Positions 43-60,825 are shown, numbered from the stretch's first letter. The stretch: DNA of 64,000 nucleotides from an uncultured Alphaproteobacteria bacterium (GCA_947586835.1 CANPXT010000002.1:23009-87008), one strand, 5' to 3'. Made by a program: numbers and translations. The notes: a model not told the origin generated them from the letters alone.

Positions 43-1722
43 ATGTTTTTACGCTTTTTATTTTGTTCTTGTGCCGCTTTTGCTTTAACGGCTGCTCAGG
101 CGCAAGATTTTACCGGTTTGTCAAACGGATCCATTTTAATTTGCAAAGACAGTCAATGTATTCCGTCTGCCGCAGAAATGGGACATCTTTATCTGGTTAA
201 TCAAATTAATGAATTAATGAAAAACAATATCGGGAAAAACATTACCTTATGTGAAGCATCACCCGATAAATATTCCTGCACCGAACAAGGGTTTTCTTTT
301 CCCGTTCAGTCTGATATGATTAAAACCTCGGTCAGTCTGCCGACCGCGCGCATTATTGATGCAAAACCCTTGGAAGACGGACCGGGTACCGATCTGATCA
401 TTGATTATCGTTTAAAAGCAGGCGATACTTTTCCGAGATGTCAAACCTCTTTATCGCGAATGGGAGTTGCCAGTGCCGTCGATGTTAAAATGATGTCACC
501 GCAATTTAACTGCAAAGTAACGGAAACGAACAAAACAACGTTCAGTATTACATATAACGTCAATTATCTGGATTTGGATCGCGGAATTATCGGTGCCTTT
601 TATACCGTGGCCGCCAACAATGCCTTACAAGGGAAAAAAGACGGTTATGTCTTAATGACGCTTGAAAAAGGCGTGCAAATGGAACCGGGGGAAGTCTTCC
701 CGTATGTCGCACAATTGAAAGCCATTTTAAACGGCTCAATGCCTCAAATCAACGATCCGGAAATAATTAATCAAATGGAGGCTTTTTGGTTAAAGCCGAC
801 ACCGTTCCTTAACTTGTCGACACCGCAGTTTGCACCGAATAATTGCATTGATTTTGTCGGCGGATGTTCGGCTGAAATGTTGAACAATCCGGAAATAGCC
901 GTTCCTCCCGCAGCTGAGCAAATCGCGCGTTTAACTCCGGCAGGTGTTCCCTCAACAACAGGACTGATTCAACAAAAAATCGAGATAACAAACCGAACAA
1001 GAATTCTCGGTCAAAATGAAAAATTGCAACTGATTAACGGCACCGTGTCTTCCGCACAGATGATGAAAAACGGCGAAAAAGAATATCAATCTTTGAAGCA
1101 GTTTGAAGCAAAAAATATGCCGACCGAATTACAACAACCCGCCCCCCAACCGGCAGCGCAGGCACAAGCACCGCAGGCGCAAGCACCACAGGCGCAACCG
1201 ACACAGGCTCCGGCGCAAGCACAGGCACAAGTACAGGCACAAGCACCGCAGGCGCAACAGGCTTCGGCACAAGCGCCGCAAGCGAAAACACCCGTTCAAA
1301 TCTTAACACAGCCGGGGGTTACTTTATCACCTGAAGAAAAAGCCTATATTGAAAGTTTGGCTCAAACGGCAGAAGGGCAACCAATTCCCCAAGTGCAAAT
1401 TGATGCTCAAAGCGATTTAATCGGAATTGTAGACGTATCGAATGCTCCGTCGGCAACGGCACAAGGCACCGAGGCACCAACAATGCCTGTCGCATCCGTT
1501 GTTTCTCCTGATCAACCGACGGCATCGACAATACCTGCCGCATCCGTGTCTCCCGTTAAAGAATTTTCAGCTCCGGTTTACGTTGTTCCGACACAAAATG
1601 TGCAACCCGTGCAACAACAACCCGTAGTTATTTCTCCTGCAAATGCGCCGGTGAAAGAAAATGAAGATACATCGATGTGGTCGCGTATGAAAAAAGGTAT
1701 TTCCAAGCTTTTTTATTGGTAA
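43..1722 (+). CDS. secreted protein of unknown function with Ala/Gln/Pro-rich low-complexity C-terminal half
   Basis: ORF 25..1722 opens on TTG. ATG at 43 is preceded by GAGGAAG. N-terminus MFLRFLFCSCAAFALTAAQAQ looks like a Sec signal peptide. No catalytic motif recognised. Confidence 0.6.
   Translation: MFLRFLFCSCAAFALTAAQAQDFTGLSNGSILICKDSQCIPSAAEMGHLYLVNQINELMKNNIGKNITLCEASPDKYSCTEQGFSFPVQSDMIKTSVSLPTARIIDAKPLEDGPGTDLIIDYRLKAGDTFPRCQTSLSRMGVASAVDVKMMSPQFNCKVTETNKTTFSITYNVNYLDLDRGIIGAFYTVAANNALQGKKDGYVLMTLEKGVQMEPGEVFPYVAQLKAILNGSMPQINDPEIINQMEAFWLKPTPFLNLSTPQFAPNNCIDFVGGCSAEMLNNPEIAVPPAAEQIARLTPAGVPSTTGLIQQKIEITNRTRILGQNEKLQLINGTVSSAQMMKNGEKEYQSLKQFEAKNMPTELQQPAPQPAAQAQAPQAQAPQAQPTQAPAQAQAQVQAQAPQAQQASAQAPQAKTPVQILTQPGVTLSPEEKAYIESLAQTAEGQPIPQVQIDAQSDLIGIVDVSNAPSATAQGTEAPTMPVASVVSPDQPTASTIPAASVSPVKEFSAPVYVVPTQNVQPVQQQPVVISPANAPVKENEDTSMWSRMKKGISKLFYW
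1132..1285 (+). repeat. coding low-complexity CAGGCNCAAGCACCG-type repeat (AQ/PQ tract)
   Basis: Encodes QQPAPQPAAQAQAPQAQAPQAQPTQAPAQAQAQVQAQAPQAQQASAQAPQA. Confidence 0.85.
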
Positions 1723-8256: not shown

Positions 8257-8724
8257 TCAATTACTTTCAAACACAATATTATTTCCCGAGTCGGAGCAAG
8301 AGGTTGTTTTTGAATACATCGTTGTCAACGTATCCGGTGCCTGCTCAATTAAGCGGTAACATGCTGTTCTCGGCACATCCGTTAAAGTAATCGTAAACCC
8401 GACCCAATCCCCGTTATTCACCGCTGCTACATTTAATTCACCACCCCATCGATTAGGAATTTTGTAGCCGGTTGAACAATCATGAACAACATCTTCCTCA
8501 CACATTAATTGGTTATCCAAACCCTCATAGTCGGGTGCCCATGAAAATATATCATTAATATCACGCGCCATTTGCTCAATTTCCATCAATGTGGCACTGA
8601 CACGAAAATAAGAATCAACATAAGCCATTGACGTAATGGCACCAACGGATATCACACCGATAATGGCGATAACGCCAAGCATTTCAACCATTGAACGACC
8701 TGATTCATTTGATCTTTGCATCAT
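8257..8724 (-). CDS. type IV pilin / pseudopilin-like protein (prepilin-type N-terminus)
   Basis: SG|RSMVEMLGVIAIIGVISVGA has Gly at -1, Glu at +5 and a hydrophobic helix. C-terminal Cys pair. GGAGG RBS before ATG at 8724 (the ORF track starts at 8739). Confidence 0.65.
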   Translation of the reverse strand: MMQRSNESGRSMVEMLGVIAIIGVISVGAITSMAYVDSYFRVSATLMEIEQMARDINDIFSWAPDYEGLDNQLMCEEDVVHDCSTGYKIPNRWGGELNVAAVNNGDWVGFTITLTDVPRTACYRLIEQAPDTLTTMYSKTTSCSDSGNNIVFESN

Positions 8725-8747
8725 ATTTTCCTCCAACAAGCATTAAG

Positions 8748-22134: not shown

Positions 22135-22590
22135 TTATCTGCTATTATCCCTGCTATTATCCCTGTCCGCCACCAGAATGTCGTTGTTGTTCACAGACCG
22201 AGTATCCTCATCAGGAAGACTTATACCCACCTTTCCAAGTGTCTGTTTCAATTTCGCTTTGTAACCCGAAAGTTCTTCAAAGCGTTTATGTGCTGCCCTA
22301 ACATCATTTTCATATCCGTTACGCTTTGCATGTTCTTCTAAATCTTTCCAATTAACATCTTTCATTCGCTCCACAAACGAAGAAGAATGCTGATTGATAA
22401 TCTCTTTTCCATCAGCACTGTTCAGCGGAATGACAAGACTACCATTGTGCGGAACATTACCTTCAATCCTAGCCGGGTTACCGCTATGATCATAAGTAAT
22501 TGTGTATGTTGTTTTTTCATCTGTCTTAATTTGTTCTTTTTGAACACCGCCAAATACATTAAACTCTCTAAACTCTCTTTCATCAGTCAT
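22135..22590 (-). CDS. hypothetical protein (no signal peptide), gene next to repeat copy A
   Basis: 151-aa ORF with AAGGAG RBS and a clean terminator downstream. No motif recognised. Confidence 0.6.
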   Translation of the reverse strand: MTDEREFREFNVFGGVQKEQIKTDEKTTYTITYDHSGNPARIEGNVPHNGSLVIPLNSADGKEIINQHSSSFVERMKDVNWKDLEEHAKRNGYENDVRAAHKRFEELSGYKAKLKQTLGKVGISLPDEDTRSVNNNDILVADRDNSRDNSR

Positions 22591-22662
22591 TTAAAGACTC
22601 CTTTCGTTTACATGACTTTATTTTTATCACACAACAGTTTATATGACTTTTTCAGTATAAAT

Positions 22663-22818
22663 TAAACGTACGTTTTTTGCAACACTTTTTTCACTTTTCA
22701 TCAAAAAAATTTATTTCTATGGTTTTTTATTCATTTTCAATCGGTTATTTTTTTATTATTTTCAAAATGTTTGACCTTTTGAGCGTGCAAAAAAGTGCAC
22801 CAACTAGACCTACGTTTA
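22663..22818 (+). repeat. copy A of 157-bp IR-bounded AT-rich element (candidate invertible promoter or MITE)
   Basis: TAAACGTACGTTTTTTGCAACAC...GCGTGCAAAAAAGTGCACCAACTAGACCTACGTTTA. Homology to copies B and C ends exactly at the termini. The left end is 72 nt from the start of 22135..22590. Confidence 0.9.
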
Positions 22819-22994
22819 TTTTTGGCAACAACATGAAAATAAAAACAAATTAAAATAATTTTGAAAATTATGCTTAAATGTTGATTTTAAATAAAATATG
22901 TATAAAAAAACTGCTTGAAAGTCCCTATGACTTTCAAAAATTCAATTGCGAATCGCGTTAAAAAATTAAATCGAAAGCAACCGGAAAAATAACC

Positions 22995-23558
22995 TTACTT
23001 CCACGATGAAATCCAAGTTTGAATTTCTGCCAAAGGCGTTTGTAATTCATTACCGCCTGCGGAATCAAAGAGAATTTCTTTATCGGCAATAACCGTTGCA
23101 CCCGTTGAAGCCGTTTTCATATCTTTAATAACCGTTCCCGCCCAACCGGCATTCGTTGAAAACAAAACAACCTCTTTACCCTGCAAACTCGTGTGATTGA
23201 AAAACGTTAAAACCGCCGGCGCCATTTTATACCACCATGTAGGCGTTCCGATAACAATTCGTTCGTACGGTGCAACATTCGGTAATGCTTTTAGCGTTGG
23301 CTGATAACCGGCATTAACTTCTTTTTGCCCCAGTGCGGAAAGCTCCTCCATATCGTGCGGATATGTTTTTTCCGTTTCAAGCCGAAAAATATCGGCATTC
23401 GTTTCTTTTTGTATCATTTCGGCAATTTGTTTTGTATTTCCGCTGACGGAATAATAAACAACCAATGTTTTATTCATATTTTCCTCCTGTTTTGCAAAAC
23501 ACGGGAGCGCGAACAACAAAGCGCTCCACAAAAAAAGGGGAAACTTAATATGTTTCAT
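22995..23558 (-). CDS. flavodoxin-family protein with N-terminal signal peptide
   Basis: Signal-like MKHIKFPLFLWSALLFALPCFA, then VVYYSVSGNTKQIAE (flavodoxin FMN loop). GGAGGA RBS. Confidence 0.7.
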   Translation of the reverse strand: MKHIKFPLFLWSALLFALPCFAKQEENMNKTLVVYYSVSGNTKQIAEMIQKETNADIFRLETEKTYPHDMEELSALGQKEVNAGYQPTLKALPNVAPYERIVIGTPTWWYKMAPAVLTFFNHTSLQGKEVVLFSTNAGWAGTVIKDMKTASTGATVIADKEILFDSAGGNELQTPLAEIQTWISSWK

Positions 23559-54825: not shown

Positions 54826-57048
54826 ATGAGTATGGAGAACACCGAAAATATTCGCGAAACAAAACTGGCAGATGCGCTGTCGGAGCGTTACTTGGCTTAT
54901 GCCATGTCAACCATTGTGGCGCGCTCGCTTCCCGATGTGCGTGACGGCTTAAAACCTGTCCATCGCCGGTTGTTATATGCCATGCGTCAACTGAAATTGG
55001 ATCCGGTTTCGGGCTTTAAAAAATGTGCGCGCGTGGTCGGAGACGTCATCGGTAAATATCACCCGCACGGCGATACGTCCGTTTATGAAGCCATGGTGCG
55101 TTTGGCACAAGATTTTGCCGTGCGTTATCCGTTGGTGGATGGGCAAGGCAATTTCGGCAACATTGACGGTGATAAAGCCGCTGCCATGCGCTACACGGAA
55201 GCGCGCTTAACGGCAGTTGCCGTCGCACTGATGGACGGATTGGAAGATAATGCCGTTGACTTTGATAAAACATATGATGGCGAAGAAGAAGAACCTTCGG
55301 TTATGCCGGCCGCTTTTCCGAATTTATTGGCGAACGGTTCTTCGGGTATTGCCGTAGGCATGGCAACAAACATTCCGCCGCATAATGTCGGCGAAGTTTG
55401 CGATGCACTGTTGCATTTATTAAAAAATCCCGAAGCCTCTACGGCTGATTTAATTCAATACATTCAAGGACCTGATTTTCCAACCGGCGGTATTTTGGCG
55501 GAAAGTCGTCAAAATATCATTAAAGTTTATCAAGACGGGCGCGGAGCCATGAAAGTTCGCGCCAAATGGGAGAAAGAAGAGTTATCGCACGGGCAATATC
55601 AAATTGTCGTTACCGAAATTCCTTACGGCATTCAAAAATCTGATTTGGTTATGCGCATTGCAAAGTTGTTGTCCGAAAAAAAACTGCCTTTATTGGCTGA
55701 TATTCGTGATGAATCATCTGATGTTGTTCGTTTGGTGTTAGAACCGAAATCACGGACGGTTCTGCCCGAACAACTCATGGAACATTTATTTAAAAACACC
55801 GATTTGCAAATTAACTTCAATCTGAATATGAATGTGCTTGATGCCGATCATACCCCACGCGTCATGAGTTTAAAAGAAGTGTTGGTTGCTTATTTAAAAC
55901 ATCGCGATATTGTATTGGTACGTCGCTCGCAATATCGACTGGATAAAATTATGCACCGAATGGAGCTGTTGCAAGGCTTTTTAATCACTTATTTAAATCT
56001 GGATCGCGTGATTGAAATTATTCGGAACGAAGATGAACCCAAACCTCTGTTAATGAAAGAGTTTTCTTTAAGCGATATTCAGGCGGAAGCCATTTTGAAT
56101 ATGCGATTAAGAAGTTTGAGAAAACTGGAAGAAGCACAACTGAAAAACGAATATGAAACACTTTCAAATGAAAAGCAGGAATTAGAAAAGCTTTTAAATG
56201 ATACGGCGTTACGGATTAAAAAGCTGGCGGAAGAAATTAAAGTTATTCAAAAAGCATTCGGGCAAAAAACGGCACTCGGGGCACGGCGAACACAAGTGAC
56301 CGATGCGCCCGAAGAAGTGAAAATTTCCATTGAAGCCATGATTGAGCGTGAACCGATAACGGTTGTGTTATCAAAACAAGGCTGGATTCGTGCCGTGAAA
56401 GGGCACATTGAAATTTCTTCCGATTTAAAATTTAAAGAAGGTGATTCACTTAAAGCCGTGTTAAAAACATACACCACCGATAATATTTTAATTTTCACCA
56501 CAAACGGACGGTTTTACACGCTTTTAGGTAACAACATTGCGGGCGGTCGCGGGTTTGGTGAGCCGTTACGTCTGTCGGTCGATATTGCACAGGAAGCCGA
56601 TATTGTCGCACTTTTGCCATATGAAGCCGATCAAAAACTTTTGGTTGCCTCGCAAAACGGCAAAGGCTTTATTGTTGCCGCGTCCGATGTGATTGCGCAA
56701 ACACGCGCCGGTAAAATTATTCTTAATTTATCTGATAACGATAAAGCCATTCTTTGCAAACCCGTTACGGGTGATCATATTGCCGTTATCGGCACCAATC
56801 GCAAAATGATAGTGTTTAAAACGGAAGAAATTCCCGTTATGACACGTTCCAACGGCGTCATTCTTCAACGCTATCAGGAAGCCAAGCTTTCCGATGTTAA
56901 ATTCTTTAATTTGGTCGATGGTTTATCTTTCCCCTCGGGCAATGGCACACGCATTGAACGGAACATTGAATTTTGGCTGGCCAAACGGGCAACGGTGGGT
57001 AAAATTCCGCCGGTCGGATTTCCGCGCAGTAACAAATTCGGCAATTAA
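54826..57048 (+). CDS. parC: DNA topoisomerase IV subunit A
   Basis: [24 protein letters not shown], the active-site [10 protein letters not shown] tyrosine region and 740 aa. No GyrA-box seen. Confidence 0.9.
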
Positions 57049-57059
57049 AAATTGTTTAA
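57009..57059 (+). repeat. left arm of perfect 51-bp inverted repeat (last 13 codons, stop and 11 nt of parC)
   Basis: GCCGGTCGGATTTCCGCGCAGTAACAAATTCGGCAATTAAAAATTGTTTAA. The exact reverse complement is at 58733-58783 (checked base by base). Confidence 0.95.
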
Positions 57060-57189
57060 CGTAAAAAAGCCTGATAATGCTAAAATAAACATTTTTCAGC
57101 TTGATTCCGGTTGAAAAAGTGCGCAAGACTGTAATATGTGTTTTGAAGTGTGAAAATCTCTTTGTTTTTTTGGTGGAAGTTGCCCAAAA

Positions 57190-57346
57190 TAAACGTACGT
57201 TTTTTGCAACACTTTTTTTCATTTTTCATCAAAAAAATTTATTTTTCTTGTTTTTTATTCATTTTCAATCGGTTATTTTTTTCTTTTTTTCAAAATGTTT
57301 GTTTTTTCAAGCGTGCAAAAAAGTGCACCAACTAGACCTACGTTTA
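57190..57346 (+). repeat. copy B of 157-bp IR-bounded AT-rich element
   Basis: Same termini as copy A. The right end is 47 nt upstream of the pilin-EGF ATG (57394). Confidence 0.9.
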
Positions 57347-57393
57347 ATTTATACAATTTAGGAAAAAGTAAACGGGAGAAAGGATTCACGAAA

Positions 57394-58626
57394 ATGCAAG
57401 AAAATAAACAATTAAAACAACAACAAAATCAGGCACAAGACGGGCGCAGCATGGTTGAAATGCTGGGTGTTTTGGCTATTATCGGTGTGATTTCACTGGG
57501 GGGAATCGCAGGCTATAAAATGGCAATGGATCGGTATCAGGCGAATCAAATTGCGAATGAAATCAACTTAATGCGCAATGATATGAAGATGAAAGTAGCG
57601 CAAGGGGCTGATTTACTTTTAGGTGAGCCGTATGATTATAATGAGGAAGAAGACAAACTCGGGCATTTAAATTTTAATGAAAAATATGAAGTTGATTTCG
57701 GGTTTAATCATGACACGGAAGATCCGGAAGAAGAGGAAGAGACGGAAGAAGGATATTTCATCAGTGTATCAGGCATCTCAGAAGGCGCCTGCAAGTCGCT
57801 TGTGACGCTTTTAGATAGTATGGATGATACGGAAGATATAAAAGTAAATAATGTTGATTATTATGATACGGATTGGAACATATGCGCCTCAGAAAACAAA
57901 ATAAAAGTGGCATTTTCAACTCAAGATTTGGGTGTTATGAATGATGAGGAAGATGATTATGAAGATGAAGCGGTGACAACGGTAGCGACGCTTACCACTA
58001 CGACAGCGACGCCCACAACACCAACACCCACAACGCCGACAGCAACAACACCGACAGCAACAACGATAACAACCCCTGCCGTTACAGGAATAAGCAATTA
58101 CTGCAATAATCATGGTTCGGTGTCTTGGGAAGGTCCTAATTTTTTATGTTATTGCTACGATGGTTATGGTGGCACTTATTGTGAAACAGCTAATAAATGC
58201 AACGGACATGGCACGTGGTTTAATAGAAGTGACGGCACAGGTTATTGCTCTTGCTCAGGTAGATATGGTGGCACTTATTGTAACGAATCCAATAAATGCA
58301 ACGGACATGGCACGTGGAAAAATAACAGTGACAGCACAGGTTACTGCTATTGCTCAGATGGCTATGGTGGCACTTATTGTAACGAATCCAATAAATGCAA
58401 CCATGGCTACTGGAAAAATAATAGTGATGGCACAGGTTACTGCTCTTGCTACGGTAGTTATGGCGGCACTTATTGTAACGAATCCAATAAATGCAATGGA
58501 CATGGCACGTGGTATAATCATACCGGTAAAGGTTATTGCTCTTGCGTAGGTGGCTATGGTGGCACTTATTGTGAAGAAACTCTGTTTACAACAACGATTG
58601 AACCACCCACTACTGAAAATCGTTGA
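57394..58626 (+). CDS. pilin-like protein fused to Thr/Pro-rich linker and five EGF-like Cys-rich modules
   Basis: ATG at 57394 after a GGGAGAAAGGA RBS. DG|RSMVEMLGVLAIIGVISLGG prepilin-type N-terminus (Glu +5). TTTTATPTTPTPTTPTATTPTATT linker. Five modules of CNGHG...C.C..GYGGTYC. Confidence 0.75.
   Translation: MQENKQLKQQQNQAQDGRSMVEMLGVLAIIGVISLGGIAGYKMAMDRYQANQIANEINLMRNDMKMKVAQGADLLLGEPYDYNEEEDKLGHLNFNEKYEVDFGFNHDTEDPEEEEETEEGYFISVSGISEGACKSLVTLLDSMDDTEDIKVNNVDYYDTDWNICASENKIKVAFSTQDLGVMNDEEDDYEDEAVTTVATLTTTTATPTTPTPTTPTATTPTATTITTPAVTGISNYCNNHGSVSWEGPNFLCYCYDGYGGTYCETANKCNGHGTWFNRSDGTGYCSCSGRYGGTYCNESNKCNGHGTWKNNSDSTGYCYCSDGYGGTYCNESNKCNHGYWKNNSDGTGYCSCYGSYGGTYCNESNKCNGHGTWYNHTGKGYCSCVGGYGGTYCEETLFTTTIEPPTTENR
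58102..58572 (+). repeat. coding tandem repeats (96-99 bp period) encoding EGF-like modules
   Basis: The 32-mer GGCACTTATTGTAACGAATCCAATAAATGCAA is exact at 58270, 58369 and 58465. Five protein modules. Confidence 0.9.
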
Positions 58627-58732
58627 TTTTAAAGCTGTTTGTTAACAATCGGGCGAGCGGAATTAATCCCCTCGCTCCGGTTCGTTGCTTTAAAAATATC
58701 TCTGAATACGGCTTAAAACAAGCTTTTTTGCT

Positions 58733-58783
58733 TTAAACAATTTTTAATTGCCGAATTTGTTACTGCGCGGAAATCCGACCGGC
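58733..58783 (-). repeat. right arm of perfect 51-bp inverted repeat
   Basis: TTAAACAATTTTTAATTGCCGAATTTGTTACTGCGCGGAAATCCGACCGGC is the reverse complement of 57009-57059. Confidence 0.95.
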
Positions 58784-58880
58784 AGGATATGAAGATTCCG
58801 TTCAATCCCAAAGGAAATAAAGCCGATAATAAAGATATGGAAAAATAATTTTCGGATATATCCGGTTTTAAAGAAAGATA
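58744..58880 (-). pseudogene. decayed inverted copy of the parC 3' end
   Basis: The minus-strand frame reads ...[26 protein letters not shown], compared with ParC ...[42 protein letters not shown]. The last 51 bp are identical and the upstream part is degenerate with a deletion. Confidence 0.5.
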
Positions 58881-58895
58881 GTTGAAATTAAAAAC

Positions 58896-58925
58896 CCGTT
58901 CTTGCTAAACAAGAACGGATTTTTA
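58896..58925. terminator. strong hairpin shared by the convergent pilin-EGF gene and gene 58944..59999
   Basis: 9-bp stem CCGTTCTTG / CAAGAACGG, 5-nt loop. ATTTTTA follows on plus; GTTTT follows on minus. Confidence 0.7.
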
Positions 58926-58943
58926 TAGTGCCAAGTACAAAAA

Positions 58944-59999
58944 TTAAGCGTTTTCGGCTTGAGAACGACTCACAGTCGATTGAGTCTTCTGCTCATTCAC
59001 CTGTTGCGCATTTTGTGATAACGTTGCATTTTGAGTTTCCGCTTCGTTGTGCGCTTCATTGTCTGAATGATCAGAAAGCTTTTGAGAAAGCCCTTTTGCT
59101 TTTATTTCCGCTAACTCTTTTTGAGCTTTTTCAAGTGAATTAATAACAGCTTTTCTATCATCAACGGTCAAATTTTCAGGATTAAAAATAGCAAATTCGG
59201 CTTTACTGGTTTTAATGCCGTTATGTTCTCCGTCATCTTTTCTTTCAAAAAACTTTTCCAACGACATACCGGGCAATTCCATATAAGAGGCATAAATTAA
59301 ACTTGCACCTCTCCATTTTGACCCTTCCGACTCCTTATCATTTTGTACAAGATCTTTCAGAGTGTTTAAAGCCTCTTCTGCTGCTTTGGGATCTTTTTTC
59401 AATTCTTCCCAGCTTTTAATGCCCGAAAAGGCGCCCGGAATAATGCGATCACCATCACGATATCCGTAAAGAAATTTATATGCATTCATTCGATCTTCGG
59501 AAGTTTCTTTTAAATTGGTGCGTCTTTTGCCGACGACAGAATCGGCAAAAGAAACTGTGGCAACCGCACCACCTACCCATCCGCCAAGGTAAGTTGTTGC
59601 AAGTCTTACGCCGCTCCGTGCACTATAACCGCCCAAAGCTTTTGATACCTTTGCGGCAACACCCGGTATTTTCTTAGCTGCGATATTCCCGGCAACACCA
59701 CCGGAAACCATGCCGCCCAAACCACCTAAAAGCGCGTCATCTAACCCGTCCAAAACATCTGATCCGGTCGGAATCATGTTCTTGGCAACCGTTGAATAAG
59801 GAACAGCTTGCTGATCTTTCGGAATAACAACGTTTTCTCTTTTGGTGTATAAATGACTCGTACCTAAATCAAGTGGTGGCATCGGCTTGGTATAATCAAT
59901 ATTTTCAAATTGTTCATCGGTTATGTTCGTTACTCTTTTCAGTAACAATTCAACCGCCCGTTCTCCGGCATTTGTTTGATCTTTCAATCCATCTAACAT
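58944..59999 (-). CDS. hypothetical protein with glycine-zipper-like hydrophobic segment
   Basis: 351-aa ORF, AAGGAG RBS. LLGGLGGMVSGGVAGNIAA and YLGGWVGGAVATV segments. Charged coiled-coil C-terminus. No signal peptide. Confidence 0.65.
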   Translation of the reverse strand: MLDGLKDQTNAGERAVELLLKRVTNITDEQFENIDYTKPMPPLDLGTSHLYTKRENVVIPKDQQAVPYSTVAKNMIPTGSDVLDGLDDALLGGLGGMVSGGVAGNIAAKKIPGVAAKVSKALGGYSARSGVRLATTYLGGWVGGAVATVSFADSVVGKRRTNLKETSEDRMNAYKFLYGYRDGDRIIPGAFSGIKSWEELKKDPKAAEEALNTLKDLVQNDKESEGSKWRGASLIYASYMELPGMSLEKFFERKDDGEHNGIKTSKAEFAIFNPENLTVDDRKAVINSLEKAQKELAEIKAKGLSQKLSDHSDNEAHNEAETQNATLSQNAQQVNEQKTQSTVSRSQAENA

Positions 60000-60023
60000 T
60001 TCAAAACTCCTTTTGTTATTTTT

Positions 60024-60052
60024 ATTCTATGAACACATTCATAGCACTTGAA
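60024..60052 (-). promoter_or_regulatory. sigma70-like promoter (TTCAAG-17-TAGAAT) between repeat copy C and gene 58944..59999
   Basis: On the minus strand, the -35 is at 60052-60047 and the -10 at 60029-60024. It lies outside the repeat element. Confidence 0.4.
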
Positions 60053-60060
60053 GTGTAGCA

Positions 60061-60217
60061 TAAACGTAGGTCTAGTTGGTGCACTTTTTTGCACGCTTAA
60101 AAGGATAAACATTTTGAAAACAATAAAAAAATAACCGATTGAAAATGAACAAAAAACAAGAAAAATAAATTTTTTTGATGAAAAGTGAAAAAAAGTGTTG
60201 CAAAAAACGTACGTTTA
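60061..60217 (-). repeat. copy C of 157-bp IR-bounded AT-rich element (reverse orientation)
   Basis: Reverse complement of copies A and B. The same end as in copy B faces the gene, 61 nt upstream of the ATG at 59999. Confidence 0.9.
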
Positions 60218-60338
60218 AGAAACACAATATTATACTTAAATTTCAATTACTTAATATATAATATATCCGCTTTTTAAAGAAAATTGTTAAATTTTATAAT
60301 ATATTGATTTTATTTAATTCATTTTTCATCATAAAAAA

Positions 60339-60376
60339 AACTTCCCTTCGCTAAAAGAGAAGTTTTTTATTTTTTA
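60339..60376 (-). terminator. terminator after nfeD
   Basis: AACTTC-CT / AG-GAAGTT stem with one bulge, flanked by A8 and a T-run. Confidence 0.55.
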
Positions 60377-60387
60377 ATAATATAAAT

Positions 60388-60825
60388 CTATAAAGCGGTA
60401 ATGACAAAAACAACGCCGTTCTTTTCAACGCCGACAATTTTTGCTTTCTCACCCGCTTTTAAGTTTTCTTTACACACAGCCAACCAAACCGAATCGCCGA
60501 TTTTAATTTTCGTTTCGCCGTTGTGTACATTATTCAATACAACAACCGTTTTCCCGACATGTTGCCCCGCTAAATCATTCAAATGCGGATATTGATTATC
60601 GGAACGCTTTAAAATAAACCGATAAATAAAAAATCCGACCGATGCCATAACAGCGGATAACACACTGAAACAAATTAATTGATATGTGAACGATAATTCA
60701 TATGCATATTGCACACCGGCAACACCCAGAGCGGAAAATCCGAACCAGATTAAATAAATACCCGGTGAAAATAATTCTAATAAAACCAGAAAAATACCTA
60801 AGGCTGCCCATTCAATAAACGTCAT
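60388..60825 (-). CDS. NfeD family membrane protein
   Basis: Three N-terminal TM helices plus a C-terminal OB-like domain. Immediately downstream of the SPFH gene. Confidence 0.75.
   Translation of the reverse strand: MTFIEWAALGIFLVLLELFSPGIYLIWFGFSALGVAGVQYAYELSFTYQLICFSVLSAVMASVGFFIYRFILKRSDNQYPHLNDLAGQHVGKTVVVLNNVHNGETKIKIGDSVWLAVCKENLKAGEKAKIVGVEKNGVVFVITAL

Follow-up and report, generated by a model that had tools for sequence, protein, structure and literature searches.

The window analyzed here, a 64-kb stretch of DNA (64,000 nucleotides) from an uncultured alphaproteobacterium, contains three copies of a 156- to 157-bp element, each located upstream of a different gene. Copy 1 (22663-22818, plus strand; 156 bp) precedes a gene for a 151-amino-acid (aa) protein (22135-22590, minus strand) that has no Pfam family and a single homolog, 94% identical, among 5.8 billion proteins; the right end of this copy points to the 3' end of a flavodoxin gene. 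Copy 2 (57190-57346, plus strand; 157 bp) lies upstream of a gene (57394-58626, plus strand) encoding a 410-aa type IV pilin-like protein with the N-terminal sequence GRSMVEMLGVLAIIGV and EGF-like repeats. Copy 3 (60061-60217, minus strand; 157 bp) precedes a gene (58944-59999, minus strand) for a 351-aa glycine-rich protein, also without a Pfam family. The coordinates given for the three copies in a preliminary description of this DNA were exact, and its estimates of about nine identical positions in ten and of a 47- to 72-nt gap to the start codons agree with our measurements: pairwise identity is 95% (copies 2 and 3), 94% (copies 1 and 3), or 91% (copies 1 and 2), and the gaps are 72, 47, and 61 nt for copies 1, 2, and 3, respectively. 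Alignment of the copies bore out the further statement that the first 29 and last 36 nt are invariant, with all differences falling in the AT-rich interior, whose G+C content is 25 to 27%. The terminal inverted repeats reported there (TAAACGTACG and TAAACGTAGG, the latter as reverse complement), the inner inverted pair (TTTTTTGCA and TGCAAAAAA), and the palindrome AAACGTACGTTT at the left end are likewise present. Patterns of 23 to 24 nt taken from the ends occur three times each, against 0.00 to 0.01 expected in shuffles. Beyond the three copies, we found neither further copies nor solo cores in the 64-kb window; the one other match, with two mismatches, lies within a coding region and is probably due to chance.

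Other repeats accompany these loci. A 70-nt inverted repeat (57004-57073 and 58719-58788, 93% complementary) consists of the final 45 nt of parC together with the next 25 nt and recurs, reversed, between the genes for the pilin-EGF and 351-aa proteins. Its second copy falls within the 3-kb block that copies 2 and 3, in opposite orientations, delimit, and flipping the DNA between these copies would place the 70-mers as direct repeats around the unit formed by the element and the 351-aa gene; the repeat may have been left by an insertion and a later inversion between two copies of the element. Within the pilin-like gene, four to five tandem repeats of 96 to 99 nt (58108-58578) encode EGF-like cysteine modules (CNGHGTW...GYCSC..YGGTYC), and the copy number of this array could be variable. 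A second pilin-like gene (8257-8739, minus strand; 160 aa) has no element upstream; it shares the N-terminus MVEMLGVLAIIGV, with a 44-nt inverted match to 57451-57494. The first open reading frame of the window contains a 15-nt tandem repeat (CAGGCRCAAGCACCG-like; 1144-1313) that encodes an Ala/Pro/Gln-rich low-complexity stretch.

The orientation of the copies relative to their genes, the apparent split of a promoter across the element boundary, and an element-free related strain had been overlooked in the earlier work. All three copies do precede a gene, as claimed, but copy 1 faces its gene with the left end, whereas copies 2 and 3 do so with the right end. Similarly, homology had been thought to stop at the termini, yet short motifs recur outside them when the flanks are compared with the orientation of each copy taken into account. 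The left flank of copy 1 and the right flank of copy 2 carry the same gene-side motif, ATT-TATAC(T/A), and a far-side motif, TGCC(C/A)AAAA, is common to the same two copies. The boundary of each copy is a core, AAACG-TA-CGTTT, whose inner right half reads AGACC in the window family, and next to each core come an A/T-rich 4-nt spacer and then a hexamer arm. The elements of the window have four half-sites, namely, far outer TGCCCAAAAT-AAACG, left inner GTGTTGCAAAA-AACG, right inner TGCACCAACT-AGACC, and gene-side outer TGTATAAATT-AAACG. The far-side outer arm of the left site of copy 2 is TGCCCAAAA (57181-57189, plus strand), and its counterpart at copy 1 is TGCCAAAAA (22819-22829, reverse complement). 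On the gene side, a hexamer is found 3 nt outside the element: TATACA at copy 2 (57350-57355, plus strand) and TACACT at copy 3 (60052-60057, minus strand). The TATACA of copy 2 is probably both a -10 box and the outer arm of a recombination site. The sequence AAACGTACGT agrees at 9 of 10 positions with the inverted-repeat consensus of the Mpi invertase, ARACGTTCGTN, in the form in which PMC8375218 quotes it; the mismatch is the central dinucleotide, which is TA rather than TT.

Read outward, the left end of the element runs ...GAAAAAAAGTG-TTGCAA-AAAACGTACGTTTA. A consensus scan identified at copy 1 a putative composite sigma-70-like promoter, TTGCAA-N17-TATACT (22654-22682, minus strand), with the -35 hexamer inside the element (22677-22682) and the -10 hexamer in the fixed flank (22654-22659), the 17-nt spacer being made up of the 14-bp core plus 3 nt. 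The A-tract AAAAAAGTG (22683-22691, minus strand) is directly upstream of this -35 hexamer, where the proximal subsite of an UP element (consensus AAAAAARNR) would lie. No other promoter-like site emerged from the scan of these 700 bp (22400-23100). At copies 2 and 3, and at a fourth copy in the same species that lies outside the window upstream of a pilin paralog (L057:5797-5953), the right end is at the gene and the -35 position is occupied by ACCAAC, which matches TTGACA at one of six positions; the scan found no rightward promoter inside the element or in these three copies. The upstream genes end in terminators before copy 1 and, as judged by eye, before copy 3; therefore, the downstream genes should depend on the switch that we propose below.

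Relatives of the element occur in other genomes. Searching one genome per species with the end patterns returned 22 loci, 19 of which belong to metagenome-assembled genomes (MAGs) of uncultured gut Alphaproteobacteria from rabbit ("Lapin") and human samples, with core pairs 126 to 152 bp apart, start to start; the remaining three matches, in Owenweeksia, Babeliales, and Francisellaceae, look like chance. The CANQKV genome carries 7 copies of 158 to 159 bp and JAZLAM carries 11 copies of 143 bp, and 6 further copies in CANQUX were reached via pilin homologs. In all, about 26 alphaproteobacterial relatives share the architecture of paired cores plus a gene-side hexamer. The check suggested by the preliminary description, a search for further copies beside gene starts, yielded a fourth copy in the same species and some 26 relatives located before genes. 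These genes and those behind the Fibrobacter-like elements described below encode pilin-like, DUF4402, ankyrin, and Fib_succ_major proteins, including one ankyrin-repeat protein, as well as one leucine-rich-repeat-like protein and proteins without a family; the type IV pilin-like proteins with the same N-terminus as the product downstream of copy 2 number 142 homologs. Short repeat-bounded segments of this kind are present at four loci of the window species, the three in the window and the fourth copy, where they precede the genes for the pilin-EGF protein, a pilin paralog, and the hypothetical 151- and 351-aa proteins.

A search with the gene-side junction extended the family to metagenome contigs, which we call Fibrobacter-like because they encode Fib_succ_major and N-methyl pilin-like proteins. 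Here, the elements are 98 to 108 bp long, with cores paired 84 or 94 to 95 bp apart and TGT(A/C)TA arms 4 nt outside each core, and complete sites read TGTATA-N4-AAACGTACGTTT-N4-TATACA or TGTCTA-...-TAGACA. All of the elements on these contigs (L030-L054; JGI metagenomes Ga0268262, JGI20170J14366, and Ga0182488), with their AAACGTACGTTT cores and TGTMTA arms, share the interior motif GGGGTAAAAAAGGGGG, and one locus is represented by 8 contigs. Sites of the L031 type look like the flipped form of the homotypic L032-type sites. Two apparent solo sites (L051 and L052) proved on closer inspection to be paired, with one core of the pair degenerate. Viral contigs gave 0 matches in two scans, and a phage origin was set aside.

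The JAZLAM copies, found in MAG SGB_4637 (L009, L014, L015, L017, L018, L020, L022, L024, L028, and L029), each precede one of 11 paralogous genes for DUF4402-like secreted proteins. Judged by eye in the alignment, the 143-bp element and the 107-nt leader are ~90% identical among the 11 paralogs, and both cores are invariant; the proteins are mostly 44 to 66% identical, with two divergent members at 25 to 35%. Homology runs ~60 nt past the far core and through the 107-nt leader, in which the ribosome-binding site is immediately preceded by the palindrome ATGTAACGTTACAT; the far site forms a nearly perfect palindrome of 46 bp. Among the six CANQUX elements (L059, L062, L072, and L073), most have the same substitutions in the inner half-cores, AAAGG on the gene side and AATCG on the far side; AAACG persists in the outer half-cores, and the far core of L073 is intact. 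These recurrent substitutions suggest either coevolution with the recombinase or the spread of an altered, possibly locked cassette.

The promoter-like features follow the same rule across the family. Positions +4 to +9 on the gene side of 26 alphaproteobacterial elements hold the hexamer TA(T/C)A(C/A)(T/A) (TATACT, TATACA, TACACT, or TATAAT) or, in two CANQUX copies, TATGCT; in one element (L062A) it lies one nucleotide further out (+5 to +10). The opposite flank mostly reads nnnGCA (TGGGCA, TTGGCA, CGAGCA, etc.), and the far-side arms avoid likeness to a -10 box. The A-tract end always bears TTGCAA or TTGATT exactly 17 nt from the hexamer position in these 26 elements. Across subfamilies and species, no other part of the element is as well conserved as this end (~65 nt), and this holds even when it faces a flank with neither a gene nor a -10 box. 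At one locus (L013), the element is framed by a pair of inverted leaders that are nearly the same over 68 nt or more and each start with TTT-TATACT, with TTGCAA on one side only; at a similar locus (L012), TATACT borders the element on either side. A subfamily bears TTGCAn at both ends, so that a flip would not remove the -35 hexamer and could only swap one with an A-tract for one without. Likewise, the hexamer scores of the two orientation states differ little in JAZLAM. Upstream of another pilin paralog (P0088; L067-L071), a relic has lost both cores to decay (AAATCGTATGTTT and AAACGTACATAT) and retains AAAAAAAAG-TTGCAA-N17-TATAAA. The gene neighboring this pilin on the upstream side (~60-1253, minus strand) is called as 145+229, 394, 145+233, or 145+235 aa in the five samples, which suggests that it holds a frameshift-prone or length-variable tract.

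We propose, with moderate confidence, that each copy is an inverton of the Mpi/Hin type carrying only the upstream half of a promoter. A recombinase, most probably a small serine invertase whose gene lies at another place in the genome, would bind two ~32-bp sites centered on AAACG-TA-CGTTT, with A/T-rich spacers and TGC/TGT arms, and strand exchange at the central TA would flip the 143-bp interior. The left end of the interior would supply an UP-like A-tract and the -35 hexamer TTGCAA; the -10 hexamer (TATACT, TATACA, or TACACT) would remain in the fixed flank, 3 nt past the site and on the gene side only, and the recombination core itself would serve as the 17-bp promoter spacer. With the left end at the gene, as at copy 1, the full promoter TTGCAA-N17-TATACT would be formed and the 151-aa gene is predicted to be ON. 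With the right end at the gene, ACCAAC would stand at the -35 position, and the genes for the pilin-EGF protein (copy 2) and the 351-aa protein (copy 3) are predicted to be OFF. The junctions expected after flipping are CACCAACTAGACCTACGTTTAATTTATACTGAAAAAG for copy 1, GTGTTGCAAAAAACGTACGTTTAATTTATACAATTTAGG for copy 2, and GTGTTGCAAAAAACGTACGTTTATGCTACACTTCAAG for copy 3. Since the crossover dinucleotide TA is symmetric, the sites would have no polarity, and the same enzyme could occasionally delete the segment, with ACCAACTAGACCTACGTTTTTTGCAACAC as the predicted junction of the excised 143-bp circle. The split promoter is supported by the conserved A-tract end, the relic that keeps this end after its cores decayed, the L013 leaders, the far-side arms, and the terminators of the upstream genes; the subfamily with TTGCAn at both ends, the JAZLAM hexamer scores, and the uniform orientation of the JAZLAM and CANQUX copies speak against the proposal. 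The data show the sequence architecture with its recurrence and conservation, the two cassette orientations, and a precise difference in presence between strains; that inversion takes place, that its agent is of this type, and that the promoter is active are what we infer from the arrangement of these sequences.

The cassette occurs in both orientations relative to the shared gene-side motif, not only in copy 1 versus copies 2 and 3 but also in L019 versus L010 and L011 and in L053 versus L034, L041, and L046. Relative to their own genes, the 11 copies of JAZLAM are all oriented alike, and so are the 6 of CANQUX. No change of orientation at one locus was seen among 22 same-locus contigs from other samples (L001-L007, from the window species [n = 7]; L057 and L058; L059 and L060; L061; L062-L066; and L067-L071); this comparison is a weak test, because these are consensus assemblies at 6 to 9x coverage, which hide a minority orientation. 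The predicted flipped JAZLAM junction had 0 matches in the metagenome collection. Two Logan contigs from different runs (L005:1-19 and L061:1-21) break off within the right end of copy 3, after 19 and 21 nt, respectively. These ends differ from the 30 nt expected of a repeat break at k=31, and low coverage is a possible cause; we rejected them as a sign of branching at a flip, which would branch at 8 nt.

A recombinase gene had been reported missing from the window, and neither phmmer searches with Hin, TnpR, FimB, and XerD (E<1) nor a scan for serine-recombinase motifs found one there or in the other fetched loci. The Pfam lists of 8 fetched loci likewise contain no resolvase or integrase, and no recombinase was found within several kilobases of any copy. 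A master invertase gene located elsewhere, like that of Mpi, would be compatible with this pattern. The proposal of the preliminary description, ends bound by a recombinase at phase-variable surface loci, is partly supported. It is favored by the core that matches Mpi at 9 of 10 positions, by the two cassette orientations, by the paired sites before families of surface-protein genes in several gut MAGs and in a second phylum, and by a precise loss in one strain (L056, below), but the 22 same-locus contigs showed no inversion and no recombinase was located in the window or the fetched loci.

Bacteroides is well known for invertible promoters controlled by a global serine invertase. The Mpi (FinA) promoters of the capsular polysaccharide and other surface loci of Bacteroides fragilis and Bacteroides intestinalis are likewise short (~150 to 230 bp), AT-rich, repeat-bounded segments that immediately precede surface-structure genes at numerous unlinked loci, and most of these switches lie away from the recombinase gene (PMC5903667). 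According to PMC8375218, the Mpi-controlled inverted repeats read ARACGTTCGTN in B. fragilis and GTTCGTTTAA in B. intestinalis; its ARACGTTCGTN and TTAAACGAAC compare with TTAAACGTACGTTTAA here. That article also places the whole promoter of Bacteroides inside the segment and the transcription start in the proximal inverted repeat (PMC8375218). In contrast, only the A-tract and -35 hexamer lie inside the element studied here, the -10 hexamer lies outside, and the core is the spacer. Further differences are the host (Bacteroidota for Mpi, an uncultured gut alphaproteobacterium and a Fibrobacter-like lineage here), the central dinucleotide (TT for Mpi, a symmetric TA here), and the near-identical cassette before unrelated genes, missing in one strain. 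Literature searches returned no description of a natural inverton with the -35 hexamer inside and the -10 hexamer outside, which is weak evidence. The hosts, the symmetric TA center, the split promoter with the core as its spacer, and the cassette-like behavior would be new.

The sites of Hin, Gin, Cin, and Pin consist of an outer recognition hexamer, an A-tract, and a 2-bp crossover center, and Hin inverts a promoter-bearing segment. We take the hixL half-site TTATCAAAAACC to be comparable to TTGCAAAAAACG here, and the layout of arm, A-tract, and 2-bp center resembles that of hix and res half-sites. Yet Hin/Gin segments are ~1 kb or longer, whereas the interior here is 143 bp and noncoding; the invertase gene and an enhancer lie inside or adjacent to those segments, whereas neither an invertase gene nor a Fis-type enhancer was identified here; and their sites are 26 bp, against ~32 bp here, where the promoter is split. 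In Mycoplasma penetrans, many paralogous mpl surface genes each have a ~135-bp invertible promoter with short inverted repeats, a set comparable to the 11 JAZLAM DUF4402 paralogs; these switches use tyrosine recombinases and different repeats, and the promoter has been reported inside the element.

The element-free locus bears on what else may happen to these cassettes. A Logan contig from another sample (L056; SRR29273042) carries the sole homolog of the 151-aa protein without copy 1. Its flanks differ from those of the window by 4 substitutions in ~310 nt, the 142-bp interior is exactly missing, and the breakpoint falls in the core, leaving TGCCAAAAAT-AAACGTACGTTT-AATTTATACT, that is, one intact core; with both outer arms, the junction is GTTGCCAAAAAT-AAACGTACGTTT-AATTTATACTG. 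The same strain still has copy 3. This breakpoint is the outcome that would be expected of excision at the central TA, and the occasional deletion permitted by a symmetric crossover would account for this single-core strain. It would also be expected from slippage between the 7-nt direct repeats TACGTTT or from an insertion site that was never occupied. We assign a rather low probability to an extended form of our model, in which the invertible half-promoter cassette is also mobile, one recombinase flipping it and in addition excising, integrating, or exchanging it between solo 32-bp sites over the -10 boxes of surface-protein and effector genes in gut Alphaproteobacteria and Fibrobacterota. 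Such mobility would explain the near-identical cassettes before unrelated genes, the solo site in the sister strain, and the symmetric TA.

We regard another scenario as unlikely, namely, that the copies are nonautonomous mobile elements (miniature inverted-repeat transposable elements [MITEs], Correia-like), whose transposase is encoded elsewhere, which insert at and duplicate TA, and which join an outward -35 hexamer to a resident -10 hexamer in a fixed orientation. Neisseria Correia elements, and the hybrid promoters derived from insertion sequences, share much with our elements: they are ~100 to 160 bp long, have terminal inverted repeats and outward promoter parts, form junction promoters, and are present or absent depending on the strain. 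In line with this scenario, our element is multicopy, ~157 bp, and noncoding, with imperfect terminal inverted repeats and 91 to 95% identity before unrelated genes; the related strain offers a precise empty site with a single central TA; cassettes lie in both orientations relative to genes; and the consensus assemblies show an orientation polymorphism at no locus. However, both sides of the putative TA duplication bear the same AAACG/CGTTT half-cores and arms in several species of two phyla; therefore, the "target" would be a 14- to 32-bp palindrome resembling the element's own ends, which is typical of site-specific recombination and not of DDE transposition. There is no duplication beyond the 14-bp cores, and a TA duplication appears only if the boundaries are drawn at the core centers. 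Correia elements insert at TA in unrelated contexts, whereas every copy here lies between conserved palindromic half-sites and arms, with an end-like flanking "target" and a -10-like TAnACn hexamer at a fixed +4, on the gene side only. Moreover, the JAZLAM element sits within a duplicated gene unit, with homology on both sides and conservation far above that of the coding sequence, and the two-leader layout of L013 is hard to obtain by insertion.

Static regulation provides a model without any recombination, in which the paired ends are operators for a dimeric or tetrameric transcription factor that represses by looping over ~143 bp, duplication or gene conversion being the means by which the element spread. 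In favor of this model, the spacer that separates the -35 and -10 positions is exactly where the gene-side core sits, a classic repressor position; the paired palindromes are strongly conserved and the interiors are variable; and the searches of the window and fetched loci turned up no recombinase, nor did the same-locus contigs show orientation variation. Nevertheless, we consider this model quite improbable. Five elements (copies 2 and 3, the fourth copy, L008, and L027) have no -35 hexamer at the gene, while their A-tract and TTGCAA face a flank without a gene or -10 box, and the core-to-core spacings, from 84 to 152 bp, are out of helical phase across families. Operators also leave unexplained why the same interior occurs in either orientation and how an interior could be lost precisely with one core retained, and the core agrees with the site of a known invertase at 9 of 10 positions (Mpi, by the consensus as PMC8375218 quotes it). 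A class II activator site at the right end (GTGCA-N6-TGCAC, centered at -41.5 from the gene-side -10 hexamer) was discarded, the palindrome not being kept in L027 or L008. A structured or known RNA was rejected as well: no Rfam family matched at gathering score, nor at E<=1 in 57000-60400, no tRNA was found, and the single-strand fold of the element is no better than that of shuffles (z=0.27). With regard to intrinsic bending, several T-tracts of the interior are ~10 bp apart, with Fourier power at 10.5 bp no greater than that at 9.5 or 13 bp, in a comparison whose shuffle control was not fair.

If the split-promoter inverton that we favor is correct, the recombination site would double as a promoter spacer and only the -35/UP half would move, which would make for a compact switch of ~157 bp in which recombinase and RNA polymerase compete for the same DNA. 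Two-gene toggles, as L013 may represent, would be possible. Judging from the symmetric crossover and the empty site of the sister strain, switches of this type can apparently be lost as cassettes and may possibly move in that form, which bears on the origin of "mobile promoters." There are practical consequences too, since short AT-rich repeats break metagenome assemblies, and inverton finders that expect a whole promoter inside the repeats could misjudge such elements. For the organisms themselves, our reading would mean that global, Mpi-like promoter inversion extends beyond Bacteroidota to gut Alphaproteobacteria and Fibrobacter-like bacteria and that pilin-like, DUF4402, ankyrin, and other host-facing proteins would be under phase variation.
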